A stretch of DNA of 64,000 bases from Terriglobales bacterium (lineage in GTDB: Bacteria > Acidobacteriota > Terriglobia > Terriglobales > SCQP01), in NCBI GenBank assembly GCA_035531375.1, contig DATKSZ010000017.1, forward strand, positions 2,017-66,016, read 5' to 3'. Within the stretch, counting starts at the first letter, position 1. Each line of letters begins with the position of its first letter. Made by a program: the position numbers and the translations under genes. Shown here piece by piece: positions 18,776 to 55,103 of this stretch. The notes beneath the pieces are model-generated. The model had not been told where the DNA came from and did not search any database. It saw nothing but the letters and a program-made list of their open reading frames with translations.

Positions 18776-18839
18776 GCCACTTTCTGGCCACGGGGGCACA
18801 GCCAATCTTGGCTGTGCGAACCCAGCCCTTCTGGCCACT
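18776..18839 (+). repeat. R2 REP-like palindromic unit (singleton), abutting R1 copy A
   Basis: GCCACTTTCTGGCCACGGGGGCACAGCCAATCTTGGCTGTGCGAACCCAGCCCTTCTGGCCACT. The core hairpin CACAGCCAA-TC-TTGGCTGTG is the same unit as in the 45967..46433 array. Confidence 0.8.
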
Positions 18840-19056
18840 CGCGGGGGTCGCGCCGCTTTGCCTGCCGGCAAAATCGGCGCGAAAGGCTGCGAAATTCCGC
18901 AGGGGCAGACGCGCCAGTGGCGCGTCTGCGCCCCCGGGAAACGAATTCGGCGCGGCCCCAGCGAAGCGCAGCGCCGGCTTGGGGCCGCGGGGCCCCAAGC
19001 CGGCGTGAGCACAAGCGGGACGCGCGGCGCAGCCGCGCTGGGGCCCGCGCCCACCA
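18840..19056 (+). repeat. R1 multi-hairpin intergenic element, copy A (long-hairpin variant)
   Basis: Starts CGCGGGGGTCGCGCCGCTTTGCCTGCCGGCAAAATCGGCGCGAAAGGCTGCGAAATTCCGCAGG and ends GCGCTGGGGCCCGCGCCCACCA. Lies between convergent genes. Confidence 0.9.
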
Positions 19057-28574: not shown

Positions 28575-31187
28575 TCACTGCATTGTCGTGGTGCCGTAGA
28601 ACACCACCAGGCCGACGTTCAAATCCGCCGCCCCGGTCATGTCGGGTGGGGCGTCATAGTCGGTGTAGAAACTGAAGCCCTCGTGCCCGGCGCCGCCCTG
28701 GTCCACGATCAGGCCGCCGTACAGTTGCAGCGCGCGCGCCAGCGCGATGACCGCGGTCGAGTGCGTGGCCGGGTCGAGTTGCGTCCAATCCCCCGTCCAG
28801 GCCAGCACGCCCCCCTCGCACAGCACCGCCTGCGGCAGGGCATTGAAGCCATCGCCCGATTTGCCGGTGGGGAAGGCGTCGCAGGTGGCGCTGTTGATCA
28901 AGTCGGGCGAGCCCACCAGCAGCACGGTGTGGTTGAGGCAGGTGGCGCAGTCCAGCTCGCCCGGCATGATGTCGCCCGCCCCCGCCACCAGCCCCGCCGC
29001 CGTGGCCCCGCCCAGGTTGGGCGCCGAGGTCGCCAGGTTGCCGCTGAAGACGCCGCGCACGCCGCACACCGTCTCCCCCGCCCCCCCGCACAGCCCGCTG
29101 CCATAGCCATTCACCCCGAAATTGATGGGCTGGCCTTGGCTGTTCACGTAGAGCTGGTCCATCTCGTAGAAATTGCCGGTGGTGTCGTCAATGATGAAGT
29201 CCTTGCCGTCGTAGGAGCCGAAGCAACCGGTGGCGCCGAATTGCGCCGGCGGCAGCCAGCCGCAGGAGGGCGTCCAAACATCTCCGGGCGGGTTGGGCAC
29301 GCTGGCGCTGTCGTGCCGCCAGCCCGGGCCGTAGTTGAAGTCGTTGAAGCCGGTGCTGCCGTAGCTGTCGTTGGTGTGCTGCACCGGCATGGCAAAGCCT
29401 GCCTGGTTGGTATTGAGATCGGGCGGTGCCCAGCCCGCCGTCAGCGTGGCCAGGTCGCGGCCGCTGCCCCAGCGTGGGTTGGCGCCGGCATAGAGCCACG
29501 CCGCCGCCGGACTGGTGAAGAAGCACCCCGGGCACGCCGTCGCCGTCGGCGGCGCCTCCACCGTCAGCACCCGCACGCTGCCCAGGCCGCTGACCCCGTT
29601 GGCGTCGGTGGCGGTCACGGTATACTGCCCCGGCGCCGCCGCCGTGAACACCCCGCTGGCCGCGTCTACCTCGCCGCCGTTGGTCGCCGTCCAGCTCAGC
29701 GTGGCCGGCACGCTGCCGTCGGCATAGTGGGCGGTCAGCGTCGCCGTCTCGCCCGCCAGCAGCACCAGCCCCGGCGGCGCGACCGTCAGCGCCGCCGCCG
29801 CCGCAATGCTGACCGTCGCGCTGGCCTGGGCGCCGTGGCTGTCGGTGGCGGTGACCGCGAAGTTGCCCGCCGCGCTGGCGGTGAAGACGCCGCCGGAGGT
29901 GATGCTCCCCCCGCCGCTGGCGGCCCAGCTCACGCCGCTGGGGGTGCTGCCGTCGGAATAGGTGGCGGCGAAGGTCTGGCTCTGGCCCACCGTCAGCGCG
30001 GCGCTGGCCGGCGCCACGCCCAATGTCGGCGCCGCCGCGATGCTGACCGTCGCGCTGGCCTGGGCGCCGTGGCTGTCGGTGGCGGTGACCGCGAAGTTGC
30101 CCGCCGCGCTGGCGGTGAAGACGCCGCCCGAGGTGATCGTCCCCCCGCCGCTGGCGGCCCAGCTCACGCCGCTGGGGGTGCTGCCGTCGGAATAGGTGGC
30201 GGCGAAGGTCTGGCTCTGGCCCACCGTCAGCGCGGCGCTGGCCGGCGCCACCCCCAGCGCCGGCGGCGGTGGCGCCGACGCCGGTGTGTAGGTGAACACC
30301 GCGCTCCACAGGTCGGGGTTGCTGTAGTTCGACGACTCGATGCGCAGGTCGTAGCTGGCGCCGGCGCTGAGATTTGTCAGCGTGGCGGTGTGCTGCGTCA
30401 AGAGTTTCCAGACGGCGTAATGCAGCGCCCCGCCGCCGCTGTGCAGCGCATACCAGACCTGCGTGTTCAGCGCCGCGCTGGTCGCCCAGCTCAGCGTCAG
30501 CGTGCTGGGGTCGGGGCTGGCCAGGGTCGGCAGCGGCAGCGTGCCCGTCCCGGTGGTGGTCGGCAGGGAACTGGCGGCCGCCGCCACCGCCACCCCGGCG
30601 CTGGCCTGCTGCCCCAGCCCGTCGCTGGCGCTCACGCGGAAGCTGCCCACCGCGCTGGCGATGTAAACGCCCGCCGCCGTGATCGTGCCCCCGCCGCTGG
30701 CGCTCCAAGTGATCGCGCTCGGCGTCGAGCCGTCCGAATAGCTGGCCACGAACGTCTGGCTCTGCCCCACCTGCAGGCTGACGCTGGGCGGGCTGATGCC
30801 CAGGCTGACCACCGGTGGCGGCCCGCCGCCGGTGGTGAAGGAAAACACCGCGCTCCACAGGTCCGGATTGCTGTAGTTCGACGATTCGATCCGCAGATCG
30901 TAGCTCGTACCCCCCGCCAAGCCGGACAGCGTGGCGCTGTGCGCCGTCACCAGCTTCCAGTTGGCATAGTGCTGGCTCAGGCTGGCGCCGTGCACCCCGT
31001 ACCAGACCTGGGTGTTCAAGCCCGCCGCCGTGCTCCAGCTCAGCGCCACCGAGGTCGCGCTCGGGCTGGACACGCTCGGCTGCGGCAGCGTCCCCGTCCC
31101 CTGCGCCGCCGCCCACCCCCCGGCCGCTCCCAGCGCGACTAGTCCCGTCCACGCCGCCCGCCAGCGCGCGCCCCGCAGCATTGCCAT
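28575..31187 (-). CDS. Large secreted multidomain protein: 2 FN3-like plus 5 Ig-like (Big_2-like) domains plus a 319-aa Cys-rich C-terminal domain of unknown function
   Basis: Signal peptide MAMLRGARWRAAWTGLVALGAAGGWAAAQG. FN3-like SVALSWSTAAGLNTQVWYG...YDLRIESSNYSNPDLWS occurs twice. Big_2-like ...GQSQTF.A.YSDGSTPS..W.ASGGG.IT..GV... repeats. The ORF track start at 31280 is probably upstream of the true start. Confidence 0.7.
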   Translation of the reverse strand: MAMLRGARWRAAWTGLVALGAAGGWAAAQGTGTLPQPSVSSPSATSVALSWSTAAGLNTQVWYGVHGASLSQHYANWKLVTAHSATLSGLAGGTSYDLRIESSNYSNPDLWSAVFSFTTGGGPPPVVSLGISPPSVSLQVGQSQTFVASYSDGSTPSAITWSASGGGTITAAGVYIASAVGSFRVSASDGLGQQASAGVAVAAAASSLPTTTGTGTLPLPTLASPDPSTLTLSWATSAALNTQVWYALHSGGGALHYAVWKLLTQHTATLTNLSAGASYDLRIESSNYSNPDLWSAVFTYTPASAPPPPALGVAPASAALTVGQSQTFAATYSDGSTPSGVSWAASGGGTITSGGVFTASAAGNFAVTATDSHGAQASATVSIAAAPTLGVAPASAALTVGQSQTFAATYSDGSTPSGVSWAASGGGSITSGGVFTASAAGNFAVTATDSHGAQASATVSIAAAAALTVAPPGLVLLAGETATLTAHYADGSVPATLSWTATNGGEVDAASGVFTAAAPGQYTVTATDANGVSGLGSVRVLTVEAPPTATACPGCFFTSPAAAWLYAGANPRWGSGRDLATLTAGWAPPDLNTNQAGFAMPVQHTNDSYGSTGFNDFNYGPGWRHDSASVPNPPGDVWTPSCGWLPPAQFGATGCFGSYDGKDFIIDDTTGNFYEMDQLYVNSQGQPINFGVNGYGSGLCGGAGETVCGVRGVFSGNLATSAPNLGGATAAGLVAGAGDIMPGELDCATCLNHTVLLVGSPDLINSATCDAFPTGKSGDGFNALPQAVLCEGGVLAWTGDWTQLDPATHSTAVIALARALQLYGGLIVDQGGAGHEGFSFYTDYDAPPDMTGAADLNVGLVVFYGTTTMQ
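29795..30262 (-). repeat. Near-perfect 234-bp tandem duplication inside the multidomain gene (two 78-aa Ig-like domains)
   Basis: ATGCTGACCGTCGCGCTGGCCTGGGCGCCGTGGCTG occurs at 29806 and 30040. The two units differ at only a few bases (2 aa differences). Confidence 0.85.
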
Positions 31188-40662: not shown

Positions 40663-40690
40663 GGCACAGCCCATCTTGGCTGTGCAAGCC
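40663..40690 (+). repeat. R2 REP-like palindromic unit (singleton)
   Basis: GGCACAGCCCATCTTGGCTGTGCAAGCC in the divergent proS / dehydrogenase intergenic region. Confidence 0.7.
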
Positions 40691-42661: not shown

Positions 42662-43112
42662 GAGGGGCCGCGCGCCCCGCCATATATTCTTTTACGGCAC
42701 CCTTTTGCCTGGGCAGGCGCCGCCGGAGATCCGCCCGGCGCTGGAGGAACTGCGCCCTCTGGGTGCCGCAGTCCTGCGCGGAGCGCGCCTCTTCGACCTG
42801 GGCGATTTCCCGGGCGCGATAGCCGAACCCTCCGGGCCCGACCTGCGCGGCCAAATATTCCGTCTCCCGCCACAGCCTGAGGAACTGCTGCGGCGGCTGG
42901 ACGAATACGAGGGCTACGACCCCGCCCGCGCCGCGCAAAGCCTTTTCGTGCGCCATGCGCACCGCGTAAGCCTGCCCCGTGGGCGCAGCGTCAACGCCTG
43001 GGTCTATTTCTACAACCGCAGCCCCAGCGCCGCCGGTGTCCTTGCCAAAGGGAGCTACCGCAGCAGGCGCGTCGCCGCCGCTCGCGCTCAGAGAGCGGCC
43101 GAACCCGCCTAA
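42645..43112 (+). CDS. Gamma-glutamylcyclotransferase / AIG2-like family protein
   Basis: HIFFYGTLLPGQ..., the GDFPGAI and EYEGYD pattern of GGCT-like proteins. ATG 42645 overlaps the end of the preceding ORF. Confidence 0.6.
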   Translation: MKSRTERGRAPRHIFFYGTLLPGQAPPEIRPALEELRPLGAAVLRGARLFDLGDFPGAIAEPSGPDLRGQIFRLPPQPEELLRRLDEYEGYDPARAAQSLFVRHAHRVSLPRGRSVNAWVYFYNRSPSAAGVLAKGSYRSRRVAAARAQRAAEPA

Positions 43113-44527
43113 TGCCGCGAGGCGTCGGCCTTGGCGCCCTGCACCGCCCCGAACTTCGCCAGCACCGGCTGGATGGCGGCGGCGTCGCCCACCGCCACGA
43201 TCTGCAGCGTCGCCGGGTCGAGGTACTTTTGCGCCGCCCGCTGCACCTCGGCGGCGGTGACCGCCTGGATCCGGGCGGGGAAGCGGTCCCAATAGTCGGC
43301 CGGCAGGTGGTAGAGGGCCGAGACCAGCCAGTCGCCCAGCACCGCGTCCGGCTGCTCCAGCGACAGCGCCTGCCGCACCACGATGGCGCGTTCGGCGCGC
43401 CGCAGCTCCGCCGCCGGCACCGGCTCGATGCGGAGGCGCTCCACCTCGCCCAGCAGCGCCCCCAGCGCCTGCCCGGTCACGGCGGTGCGGAAATCCCCCA
43501 GCGCCACCCAGATCCCGCGGAACTCCGGCGCCGAGACCTGCGCCCCCACGTCGTAGGCCAGGCTCTGCTGGCTGCGCAGGTCGTTGAACAGCCGCCCCTG
43601 CGGCACCGCCCCCAGCACCTGGCTGAGCACCTGCAGCGCCAGATAGTCGGCGCTGGTGCGGCGCACCGCCAGGTTGCCCAGCATCATCGTGGTCTGCACC
43701 GAGCCCGGGCGGTCGATCAGAAAAATGCGCCGCGCCCTCGGCGCCGTGGGCTCGGGCGCCGGCGCCAGGCTCAGCTTCGAGCGGCGCCAGCCCCCCAGCC
43801 GCTTGTGGATCTCCGTCAGCAGCGCCGCCGGCTGCACATCCCCGGCGATCGCCAGGATGGCGTTCTGCGGCACATAGCGCTGCTGGTGCCACCCGTAAAA
43901 CTGGTCGGGGTTGAACTGCCGCAGCGCCGCCGGCGTGGTGGTGCTCACCGCCGCCGGATAGGTGCCATAGAGCGCCGCCCGCAGCCGCTCCAGCCCCAGA
44001 AACTGCGGGTCGGCCTGCTGCTGGCTGAGCTGCGCCACCGCCTGCTTCTCGAGCTGCCCCCACTCGCTCGGCGGAAAACTGGGATGCAGCAGCATGTCGC
44101 TGGCAATGGCAAACCACTGCGCAAAGTTGCTCGACAGCCCCGAGGCGTTGAGCGTCGCCAGCCGGCTGCCGTAGCCGGAGGAGAACGTGGCGTGCGCGCC
44201 CAAGTCGGCGAGCTGGCCAGCGAGTTGGTCGGCGCTGTGCCCAATCGTCCCCAGGTTCATCATCTCCGCCGTGAACACCGCCAGCCCCGGCTGCTGGGCG
44301 GGCTCGTCGAAGCCGCCCGCGCCGTGGATCTCCAGCGCCAAGTCCACCGTCGGCAGGCGGTGGTTCTCCAGGATCAGCACCGTCAGCCCGTTGGGCAGCA
44401 CCGTCTCCACCGGCCGCGGCAGGGTGAACTGCAGCGGCGCGTGGTTGATCGGGATCGGCGCCGGCGCCGGCCCCTGCGCCCCCAGCGGCAAGCTCAGCAC
44501 CAGCCCCAGCAGCAGTCTCCTTCTCAC
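43109..44527 (-). CDS. M16-family peptidase, non-catalytic-type subunit (no HxxEH)
   Basis: GTG start overlaps the upstream stop (GTGA). Signal peptide VRRRLLLGLVLSLPLGAQG. M16 fold motifs but no zinc motif. Confidence 0.8.
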   Translation of the reverse strand: MRRRLLLGLVLSLPLGAQGPAPAPIPINHAPLQFTLPRPVETVLPNGLTVLILENHRLPTVDLALEIHGAGGFDEPAQQPGLAVFTAEMMNLGTIGHSADQLAGQLADLGAHATFSSGYGSRLATLNASGLSSNFAQWFAIASDMLLHPSFPPSEWGQLEKQAVAQLSQQQADPQFLGLERLRAALYGTYPAAVSTTTPAALRQFNPDQFYGWHQQRYVPQNAILAIAGDVQPAALLTEIHKRLGGWRRSKLSLAPAPEPTAPRARRIFLIDRPGSVQTTMMLGNLAVRRTSADYLALQVLSQVLGAVPQGRLFNDLRSQQSLAYDVGAQVSAPEFRGIWVALGDFRTAVTGQALGALLGEVERLRIEPVPAAELRRAERAIVVRQALSLEQPDAVLGDWLVSALYHLPADYWDRFPARIQAVTAAEVQRAAQKYLDPATLQIVAVGDAAAIQPVLAKFGAVQGAKADASRH

Positions 44528-45876
44528 GGCTTCCCCCCCATGGCCGGGGCCGGCAGCGTGACCACCACGGTCCGGTTGTTGGCGGCGAAGTACTGTTTGG
44601 CGACGCGCTGCACCTCTTGCGGCGTCACCGCCCGGAAGCGGTCGTAGACGCTGTAGACCAGCTCCGGTTGGTGGAAGTAGACGGCGTAGGTGCCCATGGA
44701 GACGGCGCGGTCGAGCGTGCCCCGCAGGCTGGAGAGGATGTCGGTATAGTCCAGCATCACCGCCCGGTCCACCTCCGCCTGGCTGACCCCCGCGGCGGCC
44801 ACCTGGGCCACGCCCTCTTCGATGCCCCGCTCCAGGTCGGCCATTTTCTTGCCCGGCCGCAGCATCGCCTCGATCTCGAACAGTCCCGGCCCCCGCATCT
44901 GCGTCGGGTTGGCGCTGACCGTGAGCGCCAGGTGCTGGTCTTGCACCAGCGTCCGGCTGAGCCGCGAGGCGCGCCCGCGGGTGAGGATGTCGCCCAGCAC
45001 GTTGAGCGCGTACCAGTCGGGCGCGTTGCCGTCGGGGATGCGGTAGGCGAGGACGATCCGCGGCAGGCGCGCGAACGCATCGGTCACGGTCTGGCGCCGC
45101 TCCTGCCGCTGCGGCGGCTCCGACATGTCTACCGCCGGCGGCGCCGCCTGCGGCGGAATGTCGCCGAAGTATTGCTTCACCCGGGCCAGCGCCGCCCCCG
45201 GCTCGAAGTCCCCCACCAGCGTCAGCACGCAGTTGTTGGGGGCGTAGTAGGTCTTGAAGAAGGCCACCACATCCGCCAGCGAGGCGGCCTTCAGATCCGC
45301 CATCGAGCCCACCACCGGGTGCTGGTAGCCGAAAGTGTCGTAGGCGAGCTCGGCCACCAACTCGTCCGAGCGCCCGTAGGCGACGTTGTCGGTGCGCAGC
45401 CGCCGCTCCTCCTCCACCGCCTGGCGCTCGTCGTCGAGCTTGGCTTGGCTGATGCCCAGCGGCAGCGAGCGCATCCGGTCGGCCTCCAGGTAGAGCCCTA
45501 GATCCAGTTGGTTGGCGGGCAGGGTCTCGAAGTAGTTGGTGCGGTCCTGGTTGGTGGTGCCGTTCAGGTTGGCGCCGTAGGTCGAGATCAAGCGGAAGAA
45601 CTCGCCCTTGGGCACCTGCGGCGTGCCCTCGTACATCAGGTGTTCGAACAGGTGGGCGAGGCCGGTGTGCCCGCGGCGCTCGTTGCGCGAGCCCACGTCG
45701 TAGGTCAGGCACAGCGAGACCGTGGGCGCGCTGCTGTCGGGCGAGAGGATCACCCGCAGTCCATTGGCCAACGTCGCCTGCTGCAGCGGCAGCCGGATGG
45801 TCGCCGCCGGCGGCGCTTGGGCAGCCAGGCCGGCGGCCAGTGCCACCACACCGCCTAGGCGCAGCAGGGAAGGCAT
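44524..45876 (-). CDS. M16-family zinc metallopeptidase (pitrilysin-like), catalytic subunit
   Basis: Signal peptide, then inverted zinc motif GLAHLFEHLMYEG (HxxEH). 450 aa. Confidence 0.85.
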   Translation of the reverse strand: MPSLLRLGGVVALAAGLAAQAPPAATIRLPLQQATLANGLRVILSPDSSAPTVSLCLTYDVGSRNERRGHTGLAHLFEHLMYEGTPQVPKGEFFRLISTYGANLNGTTNQDRTNYFETLPANQLDLGLYLEADRMRSLPLGISQAKLDDERQAVEEERRLRTDNVAYGRSDELVAELAYDTFGYQHPVVGSMADLKAASLADVVAFFKTYYAPNNCVLTLVGDFEPGAALARVKQYFGDIPPQAAPPAVDMSEPPQRQERRQTVTDAFARLPRIVLAYRIPDGNAPDWYALNVLGDILTRGRASRLSRTLVQDQHLALTVSANPTQMRGPGLFEIEAMLRPGKKMADLERGIEEGVAQVAAAGVSQAEVDRAVMLDYTDILSSLRGTLDRAVSMGTYAVYFHQPELVYSVYDRFRAVTPQEVQRVAKQYFAANNRTVVVTLPAPAMGGKP

Positions 45877-45966
45877 GGGTTCGCTCCAGTGGCGAGTCTA
45901 GGGGGCGGCTCCGGGCTTGTCAACGCCCCCCTCCCGGCTGCCGAGCCCCCGCTGGCCGTTGCCTCC

Positions 45967-46433
45967 GCCACTTTCCGGCCACGGTGGCTCAGAACCCAGC
46001 CACGGTGGCACAGCCAGTCTTGGCAGTGCAAACCCAGCCCTACTGGCCACAGTGGCACAGCCAATCTTGGCTGTGCAAACCCAGCGCACAGCCAGTCTTG
46101 GCAGTGCGAGCCCAGCCCTACCGGCCACGGTGGCACAGCCAATCTTGGCTGTGCAAACCCAGCGCACAGCCAGGCTTGGCAGTGCGAGCCCAGCCCTACC
46201 GGCCACGGTGGCACAGCCAATCTTGGCAGTGCAAACCCAGCGCACAGCCAGGCTTGGCAGTGCAAACCCAGCCCTACTGGCCACAGTGGCACAGCCAATC
46301 TTGGCAGTGCAAACCCAGCGCACAGCCAGTCTTGGCAGTGCGAGCCCAGCCCTACTGGCCACGGTGGCACAGCCAATCTTGGCTGTGCAAACCCAGCGCA
46401 CAGCCAGGCTTGGCAGTGCAAGCTCAGCCCTAC
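45967..46433 (+). repeat. Tandem array of R2 REP-like palindromic units, 78-bp period, about 6 periods
   Basis: GGCACAGCCAATCTTGG starts at 46054, 46132, 46210, 46288 and 46366 (exactly 78 bp apart). Each period is an A half (GGCACAGCCAATCTTGGCTGTGCAAACCCAGC) plus a B half (GCACAGCCAGTCTTGGCAGTGCGAGCCCAGCCCTACCGGCCACGGT). Confidence 0.9.
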
Positions 46434-46676
46434 CCCCCCCCCACCACGACGCCCCACCCTCTCGCGGCGACCTCCGAGTCGCCTCGGGCGAGGCGAGATC
46501 GAGACTCCCAGAAGCCAGGGTCCGGGGTGCCTACCCCCTCCCGCCTCCCGGGCCACCTCGACCCCCGGGCCCCCCGAGGAGGGGCGGCGCAATCCTCCAC
46601 TGGGCACTTTTTCCTAGGGATTGCGCTTGCGGAGGCGTAGTATCGCCAAAGCGTCCGGTCACGTTGGGGCGAAGCC

Positions 46677-48281
46677 GTGGTGCGCGCGGCCTGGGTCCCC
46701 CCGCCCGGGCGGGGGGGGTTTCCACTGCGAGTACATCTTGTCAATCCCAGCCACCTGTCCTTCGGGGTAGCGGTGATCACCCCGCGCTGGCTCTACGTGC
46801 TCGCCGCGGCCACGCCCGCCGAGTACGGTGACCCCGCCATCACCGATGAGACCCTCACCGTGCTCGACGTCAACACCATCGGTGCCGGCGATGTGGTCGG
46901 CATTGGCATCCACACCGGCAACGCGCTGCGCGGCTACGAGCTGGGCCGGGCGGCGCGGGAGCGCGGCGCCTGGGTGGTATTCGGCGGCATCCACGCCACC
47001 CTCTATCCGGAAGAGGCGCGCGAGCTGGGCCTGGCCCACGCCGTGGTGCGCGGCGACGGCGATGTCATCTGGTCGCAGGTGCTCAACGACTGCCGCCATG
47101 CCACCCCCCGCCCGCAGTACGAGGGCGGCCGCATCGAGGGCGAGCAGTTCCTCCGCGCCCGCTGGGACCTGCTGCCCAAGGACAGCTACATGTGGGGCTC
47201 GGTCCAGACCGTGCGCGGCTGCCCCAAGCACTGCTCCTTCTGCTCGGTCTGGCGCACCGACGGGCAAAAGCCCCGCCCCCGCACCGTGGACGCCGTGCTG
47301 CAGGAGGTGGTGGATCTCCGCCGCCGCGGCTACCGCTTCATCGCCCTCGCCGACGACAATTTCTATCCCGTCTCCCTCACCGACCTCCGCCTGGCCGAGG
47401 CCCAGGGCAACGCCGACCGCCTTGCCACCCTCCACGCCGTCCGCAACGAGCGCTTCGAGCTGATGCGCCGCCTGGCGCAGTTGCCCTCCGACCTGGTCTT
47501 CTTCACCCAGATCACCATGGAGTCGGCCGAAGACCCCGAGTTCCTCGACGCCATGCGCAACGCCCGCATCCGCGGCGCCCTGATCGGCGTCGAGGCGGTC
47601 ACCCCCGAGGGCCTCAAGGACGTCTATAAGGACTTCAACGCCAGCGGCGAGCAACTGGTCGAGCGCCTGCAAACCTTCCGCCGCCACGGCCTGCACGTGC
47701 TGGGCTCGTTCATCTTCGGCCTCCCCAGCGACCGCCCCGCCACCTTCGACGCCACCCTCGACCTGGCCCAGCGCGCCGGCGTCACCTTTGCCCAGTTCGT
47801 CATGCTCACCCCCTTCCCCGGAACCATCGACTTCAAGAAGTGGGAAGACACCACCGCCAAGAAAGCCGCCCCCATCGGCGGCATCCCCCTCGCCCGCCAC
47901 TGGCTCATCCCCCAAGCTCTCCGCCCCAAGGTCTACGTCCCCCATCCGGTGATGGCGGCCGAGGAGATCCGCTCCCGCACCCAGGGGGTGTGGGACCGCT
48001 TCTACAGCCTGGGCTCGATCTGGCGGCGCTCGAACTGCGTTCCCGGCCTGCGCGGCCGCTTGGCCTTCATCTTTATCTCCAAGCTCTATCGCCAGATGTA
48101 CGCCAACACCGGCATCGCCACCGACAGTGCCCGCGTCAACAAGGCCGCCCGCTGGGCCGCGCTGCTGGCCCGGCCCTGCCGCCACCTCTTCACCGCCGAC
48201 CCCATGCCCGAGCTCGCCGTCCCCATCCCGGTCGAGACCGCCATCCGCGGCGCCGGCGGCCCCCTCGCCCATCACGCCTGA
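46677..48281 (+). CDS. B12-binding-domain radical SAM protein (class B)
   Basis: An N-terminal Rossmann-like block (RVHLVNPSH...VVGIGIHTGNA) precedes VRGCPKHCSFCSV (CX3CX2C). The C-terminal block is FIFGLPSDRPATFDATLDLAQRAGVTFAQFVMLTPFPGT. The start (GTG 46677) is uncertain. Confidence 0.75.
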   Translation: MVRAAWVPPPGRGGFPLRVHLVNPSHLSFGVAVITPRWLYVLAAATPAEYGDPAITDETLTVLDVNTIGAGDVVGIGIHTGNALRGYELGRAARERGAWVVFGGIHATLYPEEARELGLAHAVVRGDGDVIWSQVLNDCRHATPRPQYEGGRIEGEQFLRARWDLLPKDSYMWGSVQTVRGCPKHCSFCSVWRTDGQKPRPRTVDAVLQEVVDLRRRGYRFIALADDNFYPVSLTDLRLAEAQGNADRLATLHAVRNERFELMRRLAQLPSDLVFFTQITMESAEDPEFLDAMRNARIRGALIGVEAVTPEGLKDVYKDFNASGEQLVERLQTFRRHGLHVLGSFIFGLPSDRPATFDATLDLAQRAGVTFAQFVMLTPFPGTIDFKKWEDTTAKKAAPIGGIPLARHWLIPQALRPKVYVPHPVMAAEEIRSRTQGVWDRFYSLGSIWRRSNCVPGLRGRLAFIFISKLYRQMYANTGIATDSARVNKAARWAALLARPCRHLFTADPMPELAVPIPVETAIRGAGGPLAHHA

Positions 48282-53900: not shown

Positions 53901-53942
53901 GGCCACAGTGGCACAGCCACTCTTGGCTGTGCAAACCCAGCC
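53901..53942 (+). repeat. R2 REP-like palindromic unit (singleton)
   Basis: GGCCACAGTGGCACAGCCACTCTTGGCTGTGCAAACCCAGCC, between the dehydrogenase stop and the peptidase start. Confidence 0.75.
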
Positions 53943-55016: not shown

Positions 55017-55093
55017 GGTCCCCTGTCCCCTGTAGCCTATTCCCTGTCCACTGTCCACCGTCCACCGTCCACTGTCCACCGTCCACTGTCCAC
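55017..55093. repeat. Heptanucleotide microsatellite (YGTCCAC)x7 at 55045..55093, preceded by 4 degenerate units
   Basis: Read directly: TGTCCAC TGTCCAC CGTCCAC CGTCCAC TGTCCAC CGTCCAC TGTCCAC, preceded by GGTCCCC TGTCCCC TGTAGCC TATTCCC. Confidence 0.9.
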
Positions 55094-55103
55094 TAGCCCG
55101 CTT

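Follow-up and report, generated by a model that had tools for sequence, protein, structure and literature searches.

The divergent gap between a pair of M16 peptidase genes and a gene for a B12-binding radical SAM enzyme holds a tandem array of hairpin-forming repeats with a period of 78 bp, and the question is whether this array encodes a peptide, serves its neighbours or is repeat DNA spread by an enzyme of its own. It lies in the window (the whole stretch of DNA analysed here, 64,000 nucleotides of contig C17), which belongs to the MAG of a soil acidobacterium, 3.45 Mb with 70% GC in 165 contigs; Pfam domains place the array, as the earlier note had it, in an 800-bp divergent gap between the two gene types, this distance being measured between the longest ORFs. 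With high confidence, we read the array as a non-coding head-to-tail cluster of REP units, embedded in a composite element and linked by association to a REP-associated tyrosine transposase (RAYT). The REP/RAYT family is hereby documented in Terriglobales, and it represents an ordinary case of an already known type of system. The features of the locus, and the single REP units found elsewhere in the window, are collected in Table 1.

Table 1. Features at the array and single REP units elsewhere, in window positions
Feature	Position	Strand	Basis or remark
Single REP unit with head module, then R1-family repeat	18796..18817	+	pattern search
Single REP unit between divergent ProRS and alcohol-dehydrogenase genes	40664..40685	+	pattern search
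M16 peptidase, first of the pair	44524..45876	-	Pfam Peptidase_M16 and M16_C; left neighbour, outside the element
Promoter-like site TTGACA-17-TAGACT facing the M16 operon	45895..45923	-	consensus match; 0.0 expected from shuffles
Head module (…CCGCCACTTTCCGGCCACGGTG)	45945..45992	+	blastn
Degenerate first unit, GGCCACGGTG-GCTCAG-AACCCAGC-CACGGTG	45983..46007	+	read from the sequence
REP array, eleven co-oriented units, 5.5 x 78 bp	46008..46434	+	Tandem Repeats Finder, pattern search, folding
Tail module: C-rich tract, then TCGCCTCGGGCGAGGCGA hairpin	46425..46575	+	blastn
B12-binding radical SAM	46677..48281 (longest ORF)	+	Pfam Radical_SAM and B12-binding; right neighbour, outside the element
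Single REP unit, then C-rich start of the tail module	53911..53932	+	pattern search

As for the array itself, Tandem Repeats Finder and the pattern search both recovered the 78-bp-period palindromic repeat, which is real, with 94% matches and a score of 742, together with a higher-order period of 234 bp at 97%. The extent had been put at 45967-46433 with about six periods; 5.5 periods stand, at 46008-46434, but 45967-46007 contains no full period and corresponds to the end of a conserved head module followed by a unit without a hairpin. A search with the core pattern GCACAGCCARKCTTGGCWGTGC, which tolerated up to two mismatches and took its chance level from 100 shuffles, returned 11 cores in a single orientation, the first starting at 46008 and the last at 46419, with 0 expected; the unit consensus of these eleven hairpin cores is GCACAGCC-N6-GGCWGTGC. 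Each unit is made of a GTGG foot, a 9-bp stem, GCACAGCCA/TGGCTGTGC, and the loop ATCT. In ssDNA folding, the perfect 22-nt core forms the 9-bp stem with its 4-nt loop at -10.9 kcal/mol, and the whole 78-nt period folds with z = -3.7; the B-type core has one A·A mismatch within the stem. Core-to-core distances are 47 and 31 bp by turns, with linkers of 25 and 9 nt: the long unit consists of the core plus RARCCCAGCCCTACYGGCCACRGTG, 47 nt in total, and the short one of the core plus AAACCCAGC, 31 nt in total. The two unit types have a common 3' flank, RARCCCAGC, and are therefore direct rather than inverted repeats, and only six columns of the 78-bp period are variable. A CRISPR array was ruled out, the same two linkers lying between the cores throughout.

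Regarding copy number, the 800-bp spacer is base-identical in two independent ENA assemblies, which makes three assemblies with the window, and these three probably sample one population. The comparison of repeat numbers that the earlier note had proposed could in this way be made across assemblies, and it yielded no variant: a metagenome scan with the unique flank of the array gave no match and no copy-number variant, and a second metagenome scan recovered only the C26 array of the same species, unchanged, and no variant of the array on C17.

The units are not confined to this gap. The core search gave 114 hits in the source genome, and at least 113 core units are distributed over 59 intergenic loci, 15 of them with arrays of two or more units and the remaining 44 with singletons; these counts are lower bounds, since many copies lie near contig ends. 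The earlier observation that single units occur in unrelated intergenic regions is thus borne out, both by the three in the window and by the loci across the genome. Within each array of the genome the units are co-oriented, most often 47 bp apart (21 of 53 spacings), with 37, 44, 48, 74, 78, 99 and 142 bp also present. In this genome the stem is mostly preceded by GTGG, and in some units by GGGG, TGTG, AGTG or CGTG; all of the 130 units found in other genomes are also GTGG-footed, but the pattern used to find them contained GTGG, and the result from the source genome is the only independent one. In canonical REPs the hairpin has GT[AG]G as its conserved 5' foot (PMC6006769, PMC3733652), and the present family, with its short stable hairpin, GTGG foot, high copy number and extragenic position, is a REP of the GT[AG]G type. 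A second repeat, R1 (5' end CTCGCGGGGGTCGCGCC, 3' end GGGGCCCGCGCCCAC; 18817-18920 in the window), abuts REP units at 11 of the 59 loci, and there it always has the same relative orientation as the REP; either R1 targets REPs or the two have a common insertion mechanism.

The orientation of the units follows the chromosome strand. At each of the 59 loci, spread over 37 contigs, the GTGG strand is the one that is locally C-rich; on contigs with several loci, all loci point one way (33/33); and among 130 units in other genomes, 109 also have GTGG on the C-rich strand. Genes of both orientations give a skew of equal sign and the coding DNA is divided 50/50 between the strands, which means that the source genome has no leading-strand gene bias. 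REP orientation is likewise independent of the neighbouring genes, which, with gene calls from a crude GC3-based filter, are convergent at 18 loci, tandem at 14 (REP sense at 7 and antisense at 7), divergent at 2 and unresolved at 25. Because neither skew sign nor REP orientation depends on gene direction, the polarity is tied to the chromosome strand. Such a polarity would be expected, by analogy with IS608 and ISDra2, for an element handled as ssDNA at the fork, a behaviour shown for these two insertion sequences and proposed for BIMEs (PMC3333891, PMC6006769). If the leading strand is the G-rich one, GTGG would be on the template of the leading strand, the opposite of what is expected for the active strand of IS608. 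The contig with dnaA has almost no GC skew, and among contigs of at least 15 kb the skew ranges from almost nil on some to as much as ±0.3 on others. No match to Pfam Ribosomal_L2_N or to the beta domain of RNA polymerase (PF00562) was found in this MAG, which is rated 95.6% complete, and the contigs with the r-protein genes and rpoB may be unbinned.

As for the enzyme, the genome contains a single match to PF01797 (Y1_Tnp), at C141:210 to ~700. This protein scored 89.6 bits on the NCBIfam model NF047646, "REP-associated tyrosine transposase" (cut-off 80), and 33.9 on the IS200 model, below the cut-off of 55; among solved structures it is closest to E. coli TnpA_REP (4ER8), to which its HUH (NHVH), WQ and class-2 Y---NP (YLAFNP) motifs align, with the class-2 Y1 motifs as defined in PMC6006769. 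One REP, at C141:684, overlaps the 3' end of the RAYT gene, and a second is found at C141:962, 278 bp further; the gene has REPs on its 3' side only, and on the 5' side there is a different repeat and then the start of the contig. The RAYT ORF (C141:210-1226, locus L164) has no stop after the conserved PWSSS and reads through the REP, an R1-family repeat and the second REP; this copy of the RAYT may be impaired, and insertion of the repeats may have shifted its original stop. On sequence grounds, the REP family appears linked by association to the genome's single class-2 Y1/HUH transposase. Binding, cutting and rejoining of REP ssDNA have been shown for E. coli TnpA_REP, and by analogy the RAYT would bind the hairpin and its GTGG foot on ssDNA, cut and rejoin; its action would spread the units in a strand-specific and replication-linked manner.

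The same pairing of REP and RAYT was found in other genomes. An exact scan for the 25-nt GTGGCACAGCCANTCYTGGCTGTGC returned at least 117 stretches from elsewhere (8-kb loci), chosen solely for the presence of the REP; nearly all come from MAGs of Acidobacteriota, namely Acidoferrum, Sulfotelmatobacter and other Terriglobia, and their GC lies at 0.52-0.65. A RAYT homologue with 40-53% identity is encoded in 7 of these 117 loci, and in 6 of the 7 it lies within ~150 nt of a REP. Among RAYT homologues in general, locus L050 has inverted REPs on both sides of the gene, L177 and L178 have arrays on both sides, and in L089, L095 and L113 there are REPs nearby. In a protein search, a homologue of 58% identity turned up between head-to-tail arrays of the same REP, one of 66% was flanked by GTGGCACAGGCA…TGCCTGTGC and one of 54% by GTGGCACAGGCT…AGCCTGTG, the stem being covaried in these last two; the stems of the REPs that flank this RAYT clade are CACAGCC, CACAGGC and CACAGGCT. 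A REP also lies in frame inside the RAYT ORF at L095:4249-4806, L123:240-803, L135:3447-4013 and L177:254-895, and in these foreign RAYTs it is N-terminal to the HUH motif (e.g. …TAKNGCAT…); REP insertions within RAYT genes have been described for subclass 2.4 (PMC6006769).

A search with the REP pattern gave 107 occurrences in the source genome and none in 30 relatives, among which 15 belong to the same genus, and within a 400-genome sample of the phylum the source genome alone has the family; no orthologue of the RAYT was found in the 15 congeners, one of which encodes a 42% homologue. These relatives are not independent samples, and REP and RAYT have one patchy distribution that fits either joint gain here or joint loss elsewhere. 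Some of the loci found by the exact scan (L050, L054, L060, L070, L082, L087 and L108) come from bins named Rugosimonospora, Limnocylindrales, Baltobacteraceae and Methylacidiphilales, and their contigs have GC of 0.58-0.61, the same as the acidobacterial contigs with REPs; mis-binning or mis-naming is more likely than spread across phyla, and spread beyond Acidobacteriota is not claimed.

Polarity and array structure together allow a more specific proposal, which we consider rather unlikely: that this is a strictly strand-polar, single-orientation variant of the REP/RAYT system, in which the RAYT inserts units beside existing ones on one template strand of the fork, so that head-to-tail arrays grow, and in which the 25-nt hairpin has stayed identical across distant Terriglobia with RAYTs diverged to 40-66%. 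If the proposal were true, orientation and array structure would be a natural read-out of REP spread by RAYTs, a step that to our knowledge has not been reconstituted in vivo. With one polarity at 59 of 59 loci and direct head-units-tail arrays, the family is in any case a good test case for REP dissemination by RAYTs.

Regarding known systems, the closest are the REPtrons, represented by E. coli TnpA_REP (YafM/RayT, 4ER8) with its GTAG-footed REPs and by the class 2 TnpA_Y1 enzymes (Quentin et al. 2018, PMC6006769). The likeness covers the 5' GT[AG]G foot, which in this family reads GTGG; extragenic copies in excess of 100; a Y1 gene present once, in which the HUH (NHVH), WQ and Y---NP motifs are found; REPs beside that gene; and a common lineage distribution of REP and gene. 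The differences are that here the units are singletons or direct arrays and never inverted pairs, that all loci have one strand polarity, and that the 25-nt REP is identical in many Terriglobia MAGs whereas the RAYTs are only 40-66% identical.

With the BIME-2 elements of E. coli, in which Y and Z2 REPs alternate with short and long linkers (Ton-Hoang 2012, PMC3333891; Nunvar 2010, PMC2817692), the array has in common the two-unit period, the alternating variants, the unequal linkers (9 and 25 nt here), the intergenic site and a copy number that varies between loci. However, BIMEs are regularly spaced REPs of alternating orientation (PMC2817692), whereas the units here are direct, and the two have no sequence similarity. 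A strict BIME is ruled out, all units being co-oriented in every array; the earlier preference for a non-coding BIME/REP-like array is otherwise supported, as regards both the REP family and the non-coding nature. A REPIN, that is, two inverted REPs that form a larger hairpin and replicate as a unit (PMC3116915), was also ruled out, with singletons at 44 of 59 loci and no inverted pairs seen in the genome. In structure the array matches the head-tail (HT) dimers and the clusters of tandemly repeated REPs described for the GTAG super-family (Di Nocera et al. 2013, PMC3733652), as the 47+31 dimer repeated 5.5 times is exactly such a cluster; the GTGG-footed family of Terriglobales is absent from the families listed in that work, where the acidobacterial Y1 genes that it covered are placed with TIR-associated enzymes (TIRYTs). 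Finally, the insertion sequences IS608 and ISDra2 of the IS200/IS605 group are alike in the Y1 HUH enzyme, the hairpin with a 5' guide or foot and the strong strand orientation bias; they differ in that the REP units here carry no gene, and in that they transpose by single-strand "peel and paste" at the lagging-strand template (PMC6006769, PMC3333891), whereas the polarity seen here would, under the rule that the G-rich strand is leading, point to the leading-strand template.

Sequence comparison within the genome further indicates that the array is part of a composite element of ~630 bp with a head-(unit)n-tail build, from 45945 to ~46575, within the 800-bp gap. The 48-nt head recurs at 81-90% identity upstream of REP units at C17:20770 and on C37 and C12, with shorter matches on C61, C102 and C150; the degenerate first unit that follows it here has kept the foot and the linker and has no hairpin. 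The tail recurs after REP units or arrays on C131 (151 nt), C12, C120, C37, C73, C61, C26 and C94, and its inner part also stands alone, both in the source genome and in 4 genomes of the same genus. At the end of the array, a C10 tract (46433-46442) represents a local version of the C-rich sequence with which the tail begins, and which in other copies reads CCCCACCCCCACCCCC. BOX elements of Streptococcus pneumoniae are built as boxA-boxB(n)-boxC, with an internal unit of ~45 nt; they resemble the present element in the modular head-(unit)n-tail build, the variable number of direct units and the intergenic site, but they have no sequence relation to it, come from another phylum and are not known to have a RAYT partner.

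The origin of the 78-bp period can be approached from its distribution. The standard spacing of the family is 47 bp, the 78-bp type is restricted to C17, C26 and C30 within the genome, and C26 has spacings of 47-47-31-47, an intermediate pattern; together these indicate that one linker of the 47-nt standard repeat lost 16 nt, which gave a dimer of 47+31 = 78 nt, and that this dimer was then amplified locally on C17. The super-period of 234 bp suggests that three periods were duplicated recently, and growth of the array may have occurred by tandem duplication, through slippage or unequal exchange, or by RAYT cuts within the array.

As for the flanking genes, the true start of the radical SAM gene is likely near 46773 rather than at the start of its longest ORF, since its homologues have ~501 aa and one gene call has 502 aa. 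It has at least 8000 homologues, which are 70-86% identical and spread across Acidobacteriota, and of which the nearest named ones are from Terriglobales; in eight congeners the orthologues have other neighbours on both sides, which are neither M16 nor sortilin-type genes, and in the nearest relative found (86% identity) the pair of radical SAM and sortilin-type genes is kept. The M16 pair (43109-45876) has no orthologue in ten genomes of the same genus, with matches of 38-51%, the 51% being one partial match at a contig end, and it looks lineage-specific in these comparisons; a second M16 gene, 42% identical, is found on C66 of the source genome. Regarding regulatory signals, the array had been described as sitting in two promoters, which the consensus scan did not bear out: the sole sigma-70-like site found lies between the element and the M16 start, outside the repeat element. 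No intrinsic terminator was found. The element adds ~630 bp of hairpin-forming DNA between the M16 and radical SAM genes, and its effect on both is probably small.

These data bear on the possibility that the host has adopted the element as a DNA or RNA feature, such as clustered sites to which gyrase or a nucleoid protein binds, an insulator that separates the divergent promoters, or a structured 5' leader in the radical SAM mRNA. This would be compatible with a REP origin and has a precedent in E. coli, where REPs and BIMEs bind IHF and gyrase and affect mRNA stability (PMC2817692, PMC3479197); the position between divergent genes and the identity in three assemblies also agree with it. It is nonetheless improbable: the closest relative, with the same synteny of radical SAM and sortilin-type genes, has no REP within the 424 nt available upstream; most members of the family are flanked by convergent genes, as is typical of insertions that are tolerated; and the three identical assemblies probably represent one population. 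Neither a terminator nor an Rfam match speaks for it, and a described RNA family was ruled out, Rfam 15 having given only three chance-level miRNA matches far below the gathering scores.

Another explanation is that the element is a miniature non-autonomous element of the MITE or PATE type, moved by an IS200/IS605 TnpA/TnpB or a DDE enzyme, and that the link to the RAYT is coincidental. The head-units-tail build does resemble that of a MITE or a BOX element, and the abundant R1 repeat, which adjoins REPs always in the same orientation, would suit such a scheme; but the sole Y1 gene scores as a RAYT and not as an IS200 enzyme, the same or covaried REPs flank RAYT homologues in unrelated assemblies, the presence and absence of REP and RAYT follow an identical pattern in the genus, and the element has no terminal inverted repeats. 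All this makes the explanation very improbable and favours the RAYT-linked REP cluster.

There remains the coding potential of the array. As the earlier note had seen, several frames are open at once, and the count is five of six frames free of stops across the array; the peptide that it quoted, HSQSWLCKPSAQPVLAVRAQPYRPRW, corresponds to the third + frame. The array has GC of 0.59/0.69/0.64 by phase, to be compared with 0.70/0.46/0.94 by codon position in the M16 gene and 0.70/0.49/0.93 in the other flanking gene. The comparison of synonymous and non-synonymous changes among units, which had been proposed as a check, gave 6 of 12 changes synonymous in the best frame, and no frame was biased to synonymous sites. 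The array encodes nothing. A multi-core RiPP precursor, that is, a 26-residue repeat peptide modified by the radical SAM enzyme and cut by the M16 proteases, has next to no probability, in spite of a period of 26 codons with five open frames, of the radical SAM gene and M16 pair on either side and of one public gene call across the array: the same units occur elsewhere at periods of 47, 37, 44 and 74 bp, which do not fit whole codons, and as singletons at 44 loci, the array shows neither a GC3 signal nor synonymous bias, the radical SAM gene of relatives, a member of a conserved ~501-aa family with at least 8000 homologues, has neither M16 genes nor the array beside it, congeners gave no orthologue of the M16 pair, and the radical SAM protein scores below every curated RiPP family cut-off. 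With no conserved gene cluster there is no case for a precursor peptide, in agreement with the doubts first expressed about that reading. A 26-codon repeat beside a radical SAM enzyme and proteases thus mimics a natural-product precursor, and a tempting false lead is removed: the repeat is selfish DNA.

The public gene call just mentioned, L166:3270-4022 in an ENA assembly (window 45855-46607, - strand), is an ORF of 250 aa that spans the array, and it is likely an annotation artefact of stop-poor repeats in high-GC DNA; ORFs called over such arrays in high-GC genomes are best treated as spurious. Two other repeats were noted in the window: a 234-bp unit present twice at 29796-30256 with 97% identity, probably within a coding region, and the heptamer CTGTCCA repeated 7.3 times at 55044-55094 with 90% matches.
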